From positions 2,464,001 through 2,528,000 of the forward strand of contig OZ244937.1 of the NCBI GenBank assembly GCA_965222075.1: a stretch of DNA of 64,000 bases. The letters run 5' to 3'. Shown piece after piece: positions 35,172-44,715 of this stretch; position 1 is the stretch's first letter; the number at the start of each line of letters is the position of its first letter. The notes under the pieces are model-generated. The model had not been told where the DNA came from. It saw only the letters and a program-made list of their open reading frames with translations, and did no database searches. The position numbers and the translations under genes are program-made. This stretch comes from Candidatus Latescibacterota bacterium. Its GTDB lineage: Bacteria; Latescibacterota; UBA2968; GCA-2709665.

Positions 35172-35213
35172 TCAAGTTTAACTCAAGATAATCTTTTCTC
35201 GAAAGCGATACAA
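35172..35213 (-). promoter_or_regulatory. Antitoxin promoter/operator (copy A)
   Basis: TTGTAT-N17-TATCTT followed by AGTT-N-AACT dyad. Confidence 0.7.
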
Positions 35214-35234
35214 GCACCCAAGCTCTACTGGACG

Positions 35235-36845
35235 TTAATCACGTGCGAACATTCCAAGGCCAAAATGGCAGGCATAGCCAAGAGCTAAGGGTCCCTTAAT
35301 TGGCTCGTTAAAACTCAGGCGCAGCAAGGCCCCTTGCGCGTCGGGTTGTTTCTCTCGCCCCCGCGAACGGAACCGGTGAAAATGGACTGGTCGGCGGGAA
35401 ACACCATGGACCTTGATGTTGCTCAAGATCTCGACTTGAACAGGCCCAGTACGCGAACTGGATGCGATCTCCCGGCGTTTCCAAAGCCGGTTTACCTCGC
35501 CCTCATAGCCAGCCTTTTTCAAATGACCAGCCGCCAAAAAGGGCGTTATGCTGACCCATTCATCGGAACAGCCAAATAGCCTTGATGTATCCGCAAAGTC
35601 CTCCGGGCGGCCAAAGCCCTCCAGGGCCAGCCGCCATTCCTGGCGGCCGCTCTCTTCATCTCCTTCTTCTCCACCGGAATCGTTTCTGCTGACCCACAAT
35701 CGGGTCAAGCGATCCAGCTTCTCGCGCACTGCGGCATCGAAACCTTCCTCTGCGTAAACCGATATGTGGTCAATCCAGCCATCGCCATCGGCGTCCTCGG
35801 GCAGCCAAAAAGCGTGAGAATGCCGACCGTCTCGCAAAGGTTTGTTGTCGGGACCGCGGCCCGAGATCACCGACGGCGCTTTGGGTCTCCTGTTCTTCCA
35901 ACCGAACTTGGAAAGCACGGCCAGCCGCATGAGTTCGCCGATCTTGACTGCGTCCTCAATGCGAGGTAGTGGACGGCCGGCCAGGAGATAGCGCGCTACG
36001 GTGAAACGATTGCGGCCAACGGCGTGGCGACGCGGACTAACATGTCGCGGAACGGGCGACAGCGGCGGACGAATGTAAACGATCTCGCGTGCGGCCGGCG
36101 GCCGATTCCAGCGGTACTTCTGGTAATCGGCCGTATCAAGCGTCAAGGCGTCGGACAAGCGTTCCGGCAAGGTCGGCCCAAACGCCTCGTTGTGCGCCCT
36201 TTCAAGTGCTTTGGGCGTGGGGAGTCTCTTGCCGGAAGCAGCGGCGCGGGAACGCTCTGCATCGTCGGCTTCCTCTAACAGGCGCGTGCGTTCTACGGCA
36301 TAGTCCCTGGCACTGCGCGGCACGAGCAACCGCACCGCTTCCCCGTCAGTGGCCCCATTTTGGCCGACCAGGCGGCAGTTTGTCTCTCCCCCCCAGTCGA
36401 TTGTCGCTTCGCAGTCAACCCAACTCTCGGCACGGCCCAAGTAGCCGATCCCTTCGGCGAGGTCGGCCGCCAAGTCAAAAAGATTTGCGTCCAATTCGAG
36501 TTCCGGCCAAACCGCTACGATCTTCTCGCCTTTGGGAAGGTGTGCGAAGGCGTCGAAGACGAGCGTCGTCTTCACCGGCGCGGGCATGTAGTGCCGGGTA
36601 TGCGCATGGATCGCGCCTTCGGGCAGGTGGTAGATCGGCACATCCTCGGCGAGCGCGTCCATTAGCCGGGCGAGCGCGTCCTCGGACCAGCGCACCCTGT
36701 CTCCCTTACGCCAATAGCTGGCGACGAGCGCCCGGAGAATGCGCCACGGCTCCGGCGGCCAAGCGACATCGGCTTCGTTGACATGGCGTCCCCACGGGGT
36801 GGCGTGATAGCGGCCCGTGGGGAAGCTGAAAGTAAGCGCGAACAT
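35235..36845 (-). CDS. csb2: Type I-G Csb2 (Cas5/Cas6 fusion)
   Basis: GRYHATPWG..VNE..WPPEPWRILRAL, YLGRAESW, GPLALGYACHFGLG. Confidence 0.92.
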   Translation of the reverse strand: MFALTFSFPTGRYHATPWGRHVNEADVAWPPEPWRILRALVASYWRKGDRVRWSEDALARLMDALAEDVPIYHLPEGAIHAHTRHYMPAPVKTTLVFDAFAHLPKGEKIVAVWPELELDANLFDLAADLAEGIGYLGRAESWVDCEATIDWGGETNCRLVGQNGATDGEAVRLLVPRSARDYAVERTRLLEEADDAERSRAAASGKRLPTPKALERAHNEAFGPTLPERLSDALTLDTADYQKYRWNRPPAAREIVYIRPPLSPVPRHVSPRRHAVGRNRFTVARYLLAGRPLPRIEDAVKIGELMRLAVLSKFGWKNRRPKAPSVISGRGPDNKPLRDGRHSHAFWLPEDADGDGWIDHISVYAEEGFDAAVREKLDRLTRLWVSRNDSGGEEGDEESGRQEWRLALEGFGRPEDFADTSRLFGCSDEWVSITPFLAAGHLKKAGYEGEVNRLWKRREIASSSRTGPVQVEILSNIKVHGVSRRPVHFHRFRSRGREKQPDAQGALLRLSFNEPIKGPLALGYACHFGLGMFARD

Positions 36846-36852
36846 TCAAGAC

Positions 36853-37809
36853 CTACTTCTGGTACGTGACTGTGAGCACACGCGGGTCGTGAAACCGGCC
36901 TTGCTGCGCGACCGCTTCGATCAGTTGGGGAAGTTCGTCGCACAGGGCATCAAGCGACGGAAGGGGGAACGCTTCGGGCCGAGTAACCCGATGTTCTACC
37001 ACTTCAAGATCGCAGGCCGTGCGCAGGCGAAGTCCCTCGGCAAGGAACTTCTGGATCTTGAACAGGGCGAACGTGATCAGCAGCTTCTCCACCTCTTCTC
37101 CCAGCCCGAACGAGCGAATCTGGCGCAGATCCAAGTTGAAGTACGCGGCGATCTTTTTCGCAACCCACTCGTCGCGGGCAAAAGGAACGTTGCCAAAGCC
37201 TTTTGATGTGTCCCCCGAAGGATTCACTAAGTCGTTCTTCACGCCACCGCTCGTGGCAACTTTGGCATCTGCAGCCTCGATGAAAGCGGACAAGGCACGA
37301 GACAAGCGTAAGCGCCCGCCCGCTAGCGTCTTCTTGGCCAGGAAGACGCCATGCAGCAGTGCGTTTATGTCGAATTCCAGCAAGACCCGTGCGAGTTCAC
37401 CGAGATTGACCCGTCCCTCCTCTATGTCGGCGAGGCGTTCCTTGAGGATGTTGACGACGGTCCGGTCTTTACCTTCAAGGATGTAGGGCGAATTCAGCCG
37501 ATGCGCTTCGAGGACGGAGTTGGTCAACGGCTCGTTATTCGCATCCACAACCTTGACAAGAGGTAGGCCCTGCAAGGGAGCGACCCAATCGTCCGATACT
37601 TCGTCCCAGCAAACTGCTTCGAGGCGATTGGCCATGCTCTGGGCGCTTTCGACGAGAACCACCTGCCCGGCTCCGTCGGGGGCCTCGTAAGCAGCGTGAT
37701 CGAGATTGGGAAAGCCCGTCGGCTGAAAGCGCGTTCCCTGCACGGGCTTCAGGGTGGCCTCTATCAGCAGCCGGGGCTGACCGGAAAGATTGGAAAAATC
37801 AATCGCCAT
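36853..37809 (-). CDS. csb1: Type I-G Csb1 (Cas7)
   Basis: [49 protein letters not shown]. Confidence 0.92.
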
Positions 37810-42933: not shown

Positions 42934-43011
42934 GGTCTTTACGCCCTCCTCAGGGATGGTCGACGTAATGGACTTCGACGCCTGCCCCCGCTTCGTGCGC
43001 CTCCCGAACAC

Positions 43012-44559
43012 TCAAGCCCGCTCTACCTCGAACGCCGTCAGGTTGCGCGCGTCCTTGCTGAACTCCACGGCGACCAGGTAAATCGGCTGGCCCAGGCCTC
43101 GATACTTGTCGGCGTAGCGCTTCTCTTTCAACTGGGCCAGCGCCGCGCCCTCCGGCGTCATTTCCACTACCTTGAACTCGAAGAGGTAGACGTTGTCGTT
43201 GAAGCGAACCGCCATGTCTACGCGGCCGTGGCTGCTGCTGTCCTCCACCGTGATGTCCAGCCCCAGCGCCGCAAAATAGGAGTAGAACACGCTGGCGTAA
43301 TAGCCCTCGTAGCGGGCGATGTCGTTGTTCGTGTACCACTCGTAGGGTATGCTGGCAAAGAAGGCGTGGAATAACGTCTCAAGGCCGGCGAAGTCGTTGG
43401 CCTCCAGCAGCCGGTAGAGCCGGACGCTGTTCGCCATCTGCCGCGATGGGTCCTTCACCAGGTAGCGCAACAGACTCCGGTTCAGGCTCTGCCACACTTC
43501 CCGATTGGGATAGCCGAGGCGATAGACAGGCTCGCCGCCGAGGTCCTCCTCGTCGGTTATCGTGAGGTAGCCGGTCTGGAACAGCAGCGCCTCCGTCGCC
43601 ATATCGTCCACGTCAAAGGTGGACAGCAGATCCCCGCTGCCGACCATGTCATCCAGAGCAAGGGCACTTACCCGGCGCTTGCACAGCGTTTCGACCAGGA
43701 ACGCCGGCGTGCCCGTCTCGAACCACCAGGCACCGAACCTGCGCTTGTCGAAGAGCAGCAGGATGTCGAAGGGGTTGTACATCTTCTCGTCGCCCAGCCA
43801 GCTGTAGCCGTTGTACCAGTCGCGGATCTCGTCCCGGTCGAGGCCGGGGAGCTCCGGCGCGAACACCGTGTCGAGGTCCGCCTCGGTGTAGCCGCAGATA
43901 GCGGAATAGCGCGGGTCGAGGGTGATGTCGATGAGGTTGTTGAGGCCGGAGAACAGGCTGACCTTGGAGAACTTGCTCACTCCGGTAATAAAGGTGAAAC
44001 GGATGTGGGCATCGCTGTCCTTGATCGTCGCATAGAAGCCGCGCAGAAAGTCGCGGTTGGCGCGGGCGACCTCCGGCGTATCCAGTGCGTCCAGGATCGG
44101 CTTGTCGTATTCGTCAATCAACACCACAACGCGCTGACCAACACGCTCGTGCAGCGCCTTGATCAAGTGGCGGAAGCGGGCCGGCGTGGTGTTGTAGCGA
44201 GCAGGGACCGCCGTTTCGTCCCCCAGGGCCTCCAACCGGTCCATCACTTCCGCGCGCAGATCGTCCGGGCGCTGGAAGTTGCCGCTGCCGAAGCTGAGAC
44301 GCAGGACGGGGTGGCGCACCGACCAGTCCCAGTGATCGTGGATGTCCAGCCCCTCGAACAGCGGCTTGTTGCCCTCGAACAGCTCCTTGCACGTGTCCAG
44401 GAACAGGCTCTTGCCGAAGCGCCGCGGGCGCGACAGGAAGTAGTGCTTGCCCTCGTCAAGCAGCCTGCGGATGTAGGCCGTCTTGTCGACATAGTAGCAG
44501 TCCTCCTCGCGGAGCTCGCCGAAGGTCTGCATACCGATGGGTAGTCTGCGTCTGGGCAT
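43012..44559 (-). CDS. AAA-ATPase-like + PD-(D/E)XK nuclease domain protein
   Basis: LPIGMQTF, YYVDKT, SRPRRFGKSL, LIDEYDKP, WYNGY, GRVD..LFEFK..QLKEKRY. Confidence 0.9.
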   Translation of the reverse strand: MPRRRLPIGMQTFGELREEDCYYVDKTAYIRRLLDEGKHYFLSRPRRFGKSLFLDTCKELFEGNKPLFEGLDIHDHWDWSVRHPVLRLSFGSGNFQRPDDLRAEVMDRLEALGDETAVPARYNTTPARFRHLIKALHERVGQRVVVLIDEYDKPILDALDTPEVARANRDFLRGFYATIKDSDAHIRFTFITGVSKFSKVSLFSGLNNLIDITLDPRYSAICGYTEADLDTVFAPELPGLDRDEIRDWYNGYSWLGDEKMYNPFDILLLFDKRRFGAWWFETGTPAFLVETLCKRRVSALALDDMVGSGDLLSTFDVDDMATEALLFQTGYLTITDEEDLGGEPVYRLGYPNREVWQSLNRSLLRYLVKDPSRQMANSVRLYRLLEANDFAGLETLFHAFFASIPYEWYTNNDIARYEGYYASVFYSYFAALGLDITVEDSSSHGRVDMAVRFNDNVYLFEFKVVEMTPEGAALAQLKEKRYADKYRGLGQPIYLVAVEFSKDARNLTAFEVERA

Positions 44560-44673
44560 GGGCACGTTACTCCAGGCACCGGGCGATGTAATCCTTAACC
44601 AGTTCCGTTTGGGCTGCACTGCGAACGGAGCCCGTTTTCCGTACTTGACGAATCCGGAATCGCAGCACCTTTC

Positions 44674-44715
44674 TCAAGTTTAACTTAAGATAAACTTTTC
44701 TCGGAACCGGGGCAA
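44674..44715 (-). promoter_or_regulatory. Promoter/operator copy B at head of cas interference module
   Basis: TTGCCC-N17-TATCTT plus AAGTT-N-AACTT dyad; 28/30 identical to 35172-35201. Confidence 0.7.

Follow-up and report, generated by a model that had tools for sequence, protein, structure and literature searches.

Twin promoter-operators in a type I-G CRISPR-Cas island are probably remnants of two disarmed phd-PIN toxin-antitoxin cassettes

We analysed a stretch of 64,000 nucleotides (nt) from a Candidatus Latescibacterota genome (contig OZ244937.1, positions 2,464,001 to 2,528,000; hereafter the window), in which two nearly identical promoter/operator elements, copy A and copy B, each stand before genes of a type I-G CRISPR-Cas island. 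An earlier note on this DNA had proposed that an orphan Phd-type antitoxin represses the adaptation and interference genes through these elements as a stress switch. Our analysis leads to a different reading, namely that two separate copies of a mobile type II phd-PIN cassette, both since disarmed by deletion, very probably left the twin elements within an acquired island as their self-regulated promoter-operators. The likeness of the two elements would then have been inherited from a common cassette ancestor and would not reflect an evolved control switch for CRISPR.

Results

Two matching elements occur once each in the genome

Copies A and B lie on the minus strand and have in common a 29-nt stretch (35200-35172 and 44702-44674, respectively) that is identical at 27 of 29 positions, with 2 differences, which bears out the 28/30 match described in the earlier note at a length one base shorter. 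The anatomy described there, which comprises minus-strand TTGnnn-N17-TATCTT hexamers, an AGTT-N-AACT dyad and a Shine-Dalgarno-like stretch, is likewise present at both sites:

35172-35213, minus strand: promoter/operator of copy A, with TTGTAT (35213-35208), 17 nt, TATCTT (35190-35185) and the dyad GAGTT-A-AACTT (35184-35174)
44674-44715, minus strand: promoter/operator of copy B, with TTGCCC (44715-44710), 17 nt, TATCTT (44692-44687) and the dyad AAGTT-A-AACTT (44686-44676)

In both copies the purine-rich, ribosome-site-like stretch is downstream of the dyad. A repeat finder lengthened the pair to 43 nt at 84% identity (family D17, direct orientation, 9.5 kb apart). When a degenerate pattern was searched at up to 3 mismatches, only copies A and B were found in the 64-kb window, compared with 0.00 places in 100 dinucleotide-preserving shuffles, and the same pattern found only these two in the entire single-contig genome of 5,360,005 bases, for which the reversed control gave 0. 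Searching the whole genome with a 14-nt core at up to 1 mismatch added one unrelated place and the reverse reading of copy B. No terminator was predicted between either site and its downstream co-directional cas genes, including the interval between phd and cas2, and copy B is the sole promoter-like element that we read in the 250 nt that separate the stop of groEL from the start of the AAA-ATPase gene.

The motif accompanies a phd-PIN cassette in many phyla

Homologues of the antitoxin encoded behind copy A were collected from one genome per species, which yielded 32 loci with 45-92% identity to the query from, by record title, Latescibacterota, Nitrospirales, Acidobacteriota, Gemmatimonadota, Opitutales, Thermodesulfobacteriota, Burkholderiales and others. 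Of these loci, 16 have an exact copy of the core motif 5' of the antitoxin start, 11 a copy with 1 mismatch and 3 a copy with 2, whereas the motif is absent in 2 (L016, L034); with at most 1 mismatch, it lies directly 5' of the antitoxin in 27 of the 32. An intact PIN toxin gene of 135 amino acids (aa) follows the antitoxin in 29 of these loci (Pfam PIN, 40.1 bits) and went undetected at L030, L036 and L037. At L037 (6001-6270), phd is fused to a PIN tail, which represents another toxin deletion. Among 23 distinct promoters of the close family, conservation is confined to the -35 TTG and a TTAxCTTxAGTTxAACT block, in which 19 columns carry at least 1.5 bits, and copies A and B each match 19 of the 19 columns of this family footprint.

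Within the window's own family, the motif was found once each in 3 of 21 other genomes, directly 5' of an 81-aa antitoxin and an intact 135-aa PIN gene, and queries for cas, groEL and AAA genes matched nothing else in those three loci of about 3 kb (L003-L005). Similarly, 27 of the 32 cassette loci have none of the tested cas genes and no AAA-ATPase gene within about 6 kb. Based on the conserved placement before the antitoxin, the PIN partner and the Phd-type antitoxin itself, we interpret the motif as a promoter-operator native to a mobile Phd(VapB)-PIN(VapC) cassette. The tie between element and Phd antitoxin that the earlier note had drawn from the window alone extends well beyond it, as the same TTG-N17-TTATCT and AGTT/AACT half-site core stands 5' of this antitoxin in many phyla. 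Binding of the antitoxin to the motif is to be expected from the known behaviour of its family together with the conserved footprint.

Similar open reading frames (ORFs) of about 190-220 aa flank the cassette in L003-L005 and sit upstream of cas3, between AAA and cas3, in genome G144. They have stretches in common such as ...TPILNV.SVEAS..HY..VLGF.KDWDWP..., and may travel with these elements.

Copy A retains the antitoxin and has lost the toxin

Downstream of the promoter/operator of copy A are the following features:

34913-35164, minus strand: intact orphan antitoxin of 83 aa with a Phd/YefM fold (VapB-like), assigned by TIGR01552, a fold match and 92% identity to the L006 antitoxin
34876-34911, minus strand: relic of the PIN toxin gene, with its first 2 codons joined to its last ~10 codons and stop by an internal deletion of ~372 nt (pairwise alignment with L006; blastn jumps across it)

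Alignment with L006 allowed us to follow the cassette from 5' of the -35 through the full antitoxin gene and the first 2 PIN codons. The flank of copy A is 90% identical to L006 over 356 nt (blastn) and represents an "A-type" flank common to L006-L009 and L013, and a hairpin without a U-tail follows the PIN relic. A search for sequencing runs that contain the locus listed no RNA run. In a read check that covered four DNA runs, in which metagenome contigs are fragmentary, the PIN deletion was spanned without gaps by short-read contigs of another study (34529-35046). We read copy A, which is located after csb2, as a cassette reduced to its promoter, operator, full antitoxin gene and ~12 toxin codons.

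The antitoxin scored 23.9 bits against NCBIfam TIGR01552 (phd_fam), above the cut-off of 20.8, and 21.1 bits against Pfam PF02604, under the cut-off of 29.8. In an AlphaFold model (predicted local distance difference test, pLDDT, 86-96 across residues 1-40), its N-terminal part is predicted to adopt the beta-alpha-alpha-beta-beta fold used for DNA binding and dimerisation, and the top Foldseek matches of the model were the N-terminal domains of VapB46 (TMt 0.91, root-mean-square deviation (rmsd) 0.9 over 42 residues) and Phd (TMt 0.73, rmsd 1.4). Foldseek E-values were weak (0.008-0.06) because the domain is small. A sequence-profile search of the PDB gave as its best match chain A of 3dbo (E 0.003), which carries the database label "Uncharacterized protein" and which we take to be VapBC-5, followed by VapB46 (E 0.14) and Phd. 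Whole-genome searches found the window antitoxin to be the only phd and detected no PIN homologue, and the window has no toxin gene adjacent to it that would complete a type II toxin-antitoxin system, which agrees with its earlier description as an orphan.

Copy B is a composite deletion scar

Between groEL and the AAA-ATPase gene, the surroundings of copy B resolve into four parts:

44760-44795, minus strand: hairpin just after the groEL stop, with an inverted repeat arm at 44760-44780 (I15) and no T-run after the stem, which was not called a terminator
44653-44747, minus strand: 5' part of a second ("B-type") phd-PIN cassette, which runs from the upstream region through promoter, operator and ribosome site into a dead antitoxin gene, of which the first ~8 nt are left
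44626-44652, minus strand: 27-nt fragment from the 3' portion of a csm4-type RAMP gene, 96% identical (blastn) to L007 6001-6026 and L008 10057-10083, where the gene matches TIGR01903 (cas5_csm4)
44567-44624, minus strand: fragment of a CARF (Cas_APE2256) gene that holds its 3' end and stop codon, 76% identical (blastn) over 51 nt to L007 7296-7346

The segment 44747-44653 is 80% identical over 96 nt (blastn) to L010 5913-6008, where an intact phd follows, whereas in the window the start codon of the dead antitoxin gene has become ATT (44660-44658). The CARF protein of L007, which matches PF09651, ends in ...TELVKEYIARCLRN at its C-terminus, and the short ORF of the window has the same peptide tail. 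The tail of the short ORF listed in the earlier note is thus the CARF scrap, and the AAA gene starts next. The groEL hairpin marks the left edge of the CRISPR-Cas island. Short-read contigs of another study spanned the scar with 0 differences (44544-45259). An apparent joint of 35158 to 44667 in the metagenome contigs is best read as an intact B-type cassette of another organism, as it has the 6 additional letters that are also found in L010, and we rejected a rearrangement at this locus.

Because an L010-like promoter is joined to scraps of csm4 and CARF genes, and because relatives show the intact layouts, copy B appears to be the remnant of a second cassette and of a lost type III-like module. 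The earlier note had allowed that copy B might be just the unconserved relic of a second deleted toxin-antitoxin pair, and this is how it now presents itself. Using blastn matches of the flanks and a comparison of promoter columns, we assigned the two copies to types: outside the conserved core, copy A has the flank of L006-L009 and L013 and copy B that of L010 and L011, and the -35 and spacer differ in a lineage-typical manner. To judge from these comparisons, A and B descend from different cassette lineages rather than from a recent duplication; they were therefore neither duplicated nor recruited for co-regulation.

The twin layout is absent from relatives

Co-conservation of both sites and the antitoxin in related loci had been put forward as a check on the stress switch, and we found the twin layout in no relative examined. 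Each of the five genomes with the closest cassettes has one site (5/5), the second match in G023 being the same palindromic site on the opposite strand. Among loci with csb2, G106/G023 and G144 have a single operator, which precedes phd, and none ahead of cas3, while G134 has neither phd-PIN nor any full site. Nine metagenome type I-G loci of more distant origin all lack a site 5' of cas3 (0/9), and their three 2-mismatch matches are found 3' of the cas3 start, inside the matched part of cas3 or past it. Taken together, the twin arrangement was not found in a family-level pattern search, the five cassette genomes, the csb2 loci of G106, G134 and G144, or the nine metagenome cas3 loci. The window thus has one property of a regulon, a shared operator at two transcription units with 19/19 columns at each site, and lacks another, in that the arrangement is not conserved in related loci.

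The gene csb2 occurs in 0 of the 21 other genomes of the family and in 6 of 168 genomes of the phylum, the window's own included. The CRISPR-Cas island is foreign to this family, because csb2 is missing from all 21.

Three layouts elsewhere are likely to be ancestral arrangements. G144 (L051+L052) reads AAA...small ORF-cas3-csx17-csb1-csb2-phd-PIN-cas10-like-csm2-csm3-csm4-CARF-cas4/1-cas2; L011 reads phd-PIN-AAA, with an AAA copy that is 79% identical to that of the window and follows an intact phd-PIN; and L010 reads cas2-phd-PIN-cas4/1. The islands of G144, L007 and L008 are hybrids, in which type I-G effectors are followed by phd-PIN, a compact type III-like module and then cas4/1-cas2. 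That module encodes a 493-aa Cas10-like protein with a GGDD palm, a Csm2-like protein, a Csm3-like RAMP, Csm4 and an APE2256 CARF protein.

The island is a decaying mosaic in appearance

The remaining features of the island, all of which are on the minus strand apart from the array, are as follows:

46473-46769, minus strand: groES
44815-46437, minus strand: groEL, then the hairpin
43012-44559, minus strand: gene for an AAA-ATPase_like and PD-(D/E)XK_9 protein (Pfam PF09820, 215.7 bits; PF08011, 76.9 bits)
42560-42933, minus strand: gene for a retropepsin-like aspartyl protease, frameshifted near 42720 (PF13650, 28.8 bits, profile positions 8-52 of 90; three-frame translation)
40119-42551, minus strand: cas3 that lacks its 5' end (deletion junction near 42420) and continues in frame from the first part of a small ORF upstream of it
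37799-40201, minus strand: csx17/cas8g
36853-38001, minus strand: csb1/cas7
35235-36845, minus strand: csb2
34483-34773, minus strand: cas2 (Pfam; closest to L010, 87%)
32660-34483, minus strand: cas4/cas1 fusion (Pfam; closest to L010, 76%)
28815-32401, strand not assigned: CRISPR array with ~48 copies of a 36-nt repeat (repeat families D3, D4, D5 and D11)

The island has the gene set of type I-G, which comprises csx17/cas8g, csb1, csb2, cas3, a cas4/cas1 fusion, cas2 and an array; within the csx17/csb1/csb2 block (35235-40201), profile matches reached 533.9 bits (TIGR04113), 167.5 bits (TIGR02165) and 146.3 bits (PF09617). The gene order given earlier for the two sites holds in that each heads co-directional cas genes, while two of its members need correction: the "protease" is a frameshifted retropepsin-like ORF from 42933, and cas3 has lost its 5' end and is joined to a small upstream ORF.

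Compared with G023, G134 and G144, ~240 nt are missing at the start of cas3. The first ~45 codons of the small conserved upstream ORF are joined to Cas3 residue ~59, homology to the Cas3 of a relative begins at residue 61 of that protein, and the Pfam DEAD match starts at profile position 43. The deletion of the first ~60 residues removed the APTGLGKT Walker A segment, as found in G144 and G023, and no GxGK[ST] is present in the cas3 ORF of the window, which leaves the helicase core without motif I. The Cas3 nuclease-helicase of the window is probably inactive. The upstream ORF, which encodes ~70 aa, lies directly 5' of cas3 (L044 2608-2817, minus strand) and has homologues in G134, G144 and the window (~42420-42551); it has no match in Pfam or NCBIfam. 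In G023, a partial version of the dyad (L044 2835-2850) stands before this ORF, at the same place as a dyad of G134 considered below. At L058 and L059, an ORF that ends just 5' of cas3 resembles, by eye, the end of a PIN-type gene.

The protease ORF covers the first half of the Pfam model, and the second half lies in another frame; some metagenome contigs have 1-nt insertions at 42720 and 42721, at the frameshift. The ORF at 42950-43339 was considered as the protease and rejected, as it has no Pfam match, overlaps the AAA gene and is probably spurious. With its damaged cas3 and protease genes, its two toxins deleted and its type III-like module lost, the locus has the look of a mosaic in decay.

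The AAA-ATPase_like/PDDEXK_9 family occurs in tandem at L010 6-4091, as two full copies and two partial stretches, and the family, to which the window gene at 43012-44559 belongs, had very high summed contig depth in the four metagenome runs, which suggests that it is present in many copies and is possibly selfish. The far end of the array has two repeats (28815-28877 and 28914-28976) with the same 27-nt palindromic insertion mid-repeat (D11). Elsewhere in the window, several blocks of 72-nt tandem repeats form a long series (6998-9783; D1, D2) that is probably a repetitive protein-coding gene.

Discussion

We propose that a cassette consisting of a Phd/YefM-fold, VapB-like antitoxin and a PIN/VapC-like toxin would have inserted twice in the horizontally acquired island, and that both insertions would later have lost their toxins by deletion. 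A dimer of the antitoxin may bind the alternating AACT/AGTT half-sites over the -10 region and start site and, when bound, would repress its own promoter, PA. Phd and YefM antitoxins repress their own promoters. The orphan antitoxin would bind and repress PB, the promoter of copy B, as well; it probably binds both sites, because both operators are intact and identical at every conserved position. The transcript from PA would run into cas2-cas4/1, and the transcript from PB would run into the AAA-ATPase gene, the truncated cas3 and csx17-csb1-csb2. That both promoters are still firing and bound is, in our estimate, an even call. We read the coupling of A and B to the cas genes as a by-product of cassette decay and not as an evolved regulon.

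Several observations weigh against this interpretation. A consensus sigma-70 scan with a threshold of 9/12 calls neither copy, and hand counts gave 7/12 and 8/12, although the TTGnnn-17-TATCTT hexamers are present in both and their position is conserved across the family. Despite the lost toxin, the antitoxin still has an unbroken reading frame and full conservation across its N-terminal half, which would be compatible with its having been kept as a regulator. Neither operator deviates at any of the 19 conserved columns even though the coding part of copy B is destroyed, which could point either to selection on B or to a recent deletion. Finally, G134 has an AAGTT-T-AACTT dyad (L053 7730-7750) just 5' of the ~70-aa ORF that precedes cas3, which is one of only 2 AAGTT-N-AACTT dyads in that genome, and no phd homologue was found there. 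Dating the B deletion from its operator was rejected, since 19/19 columns proves nothing without a date for the deletion, and the window-specific antitoxin substitutions K22R, A67K and R76L were set aside as evidence of selection, as they cannot separate relaxed from purifying selection.

A possible account, which we nevertheless hold to be unlikely, is that copy B, and possibly copy A, are inert relics of no consequence, with the cas genes silent or read from other promoters and the antitoxin an undecayed leftover. The multiple lesions of the island (PIN, the 5' end of cas3, the protease and loss of the type III-like module) and the weak sigma-70 match are consistent with this account, as is the recurrence of toxin loss at L030, L036 and L037, the last with its fused remnant. 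However, both promoter-operators are perfect at all conserved positions, the antitoxin has no disabling change, and copy B is the only promoter-like element read between groEL and the AAA gene.

An evolved regulon, in which the orphan antitoxin was retained as a labile repressor acting on two matched operators and the adaptation and interference genes are induced together upon stress proteolysis, appears quite improbable. It would account for the finding that the genome's only two operators are both intact and each precede co-directional cas genes with no predicted terminator between, and that the orphan antitoxin is intact and conserved in its DNA-binding half. It would also suit the position of phd-PIN elsewhere, as the cassette lies directly 5' of cas gene blocks, namely a type III-like module (L007, L008 and G144) and cas4/1 (L010 and L023). 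In contrast, copy B is the deletion scar of a second cassette lineage; no relative examined has the twin layout, whether the five one-site genomes, G144 with one site, G134 with no full site or the nine metagenome loci; and 27 of the 32 cassette loci lack tested cas or AAA-ATPase genes within ~6 kb. Cas3 lacks Walker A and the protease gene is frameshifted, and these lesions in the interference module under copy B fit decay better than a tuned stress switch. The earlier note is borne out in part, as the elements are antitoxin promoter-operators in two copies that both precede cas genes, but an evolved stress switch is unsupported. Moreover, protein antitoxins that regulate cas promoters went unmentioned in the parts of a 2025 review of toxin-antitoxin/CRISPR coupling reached by a term search.

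A broader form of the idea strikes us as similarly doubtful, namely that the antitoxin has been kept as a transcription factor on PA and a salvaged PB, which would tie cas2-cas4/1 and the AAA-ATPase/Cascade genes to antitoxin stability, and that toxin-antitoxin autoregulation may gate cas expression across mosaic type I-G/type III islands. The broader form draws on the recurrent position of phd-PIN at the head of cas gene blocks, with its place before the AAA gene in L011 counted in as well. If such lineage-wide gating were true, the dyad of G134 upstream of cas3 would be a further trace of it. Lastly, an origin of the two copies by recent duplication or by gene conversion inside the genome, or as ends of a mobile element, would suit direct-orientation copies that bracket the interference genes at 9.5 kb (D17) but is scarcely credible, as the copies belong to different cassette lineages outside the core, their similarity stops within ~43 nt, the genome holds no further copies and each copy has its own cassette remnants downstream.

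The cassette resembles known systems in its parts. It has the antitoxin fold of Phd-Doc of phage P1 and of YefM-YoeB, as indicated by the TIGR01552 match and by the Phd N-terminal domain and Phd-operator complexes among the top Foldseek matches, and in all of these the operator consists of short inverted half-sites that overlap the promoter. It differs in that its partner toxin has a PIN domain in place of Doc or YoeB, and in that the AACT/AGTT half-site sequence is specific to the window's cassette family. In Phd-Doc, the toxin acts as a co-repressor; because the toxin is deleted in the window, such co-repression cannot operate there. The VapB5-VapC5 and VapB46-VapC46 systems of Mycobacterium tuberculosis combine a Phd/YefM-type VapB with a PIN toxin, which is the pairing found in 29 of 32 relatives of the window antitoxin, although sequence similarity to the mycobacterial VapB proteins is weak (24-28% over ~42 residues).

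Toxin-antitoxin genes have been placed within type I-G loci before. The model locus of Thioalkalivibrio sulfidiphilus has two toxin-antitoxin systems between csb2 and cas4-1 (PMC9638904, Figure 1 legend), which is the position of copy A and of the L008 and G144 cassettes; the parts of that paper covered here report no regulator role for these systems. In CreTA, a toxin-antitoxin module is likewise functionally coupled to a type I CRISPR-Cas locus, but that coupling is RNA-based and runs the opposite way, with Cascade repressing the toxin, whereas in the window a protein antitoxin would repress cas genes and the toxin is gone. Term searches of an open-access library gave zero reports of a protein antitoxin that controls cas promoters.

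If our interpretation is correct, what appeared to be a new CRISPR regulon becomes a documented case of toxin-antitoxin cassettes that invaded a CRISPR-Cas island, were disarmed and left working-looking promoters behind. Since the Cas3 of this island has no ATP-binding motif, the locus is not to be taken for an active defence system. What is gained is an operator motif that holds across phyla for one Phd-PIN family, together with an inexpensive test case, an orphan antitoxin with its operator before cas genes, in which to ask whether leftover antitoxins become regulators.

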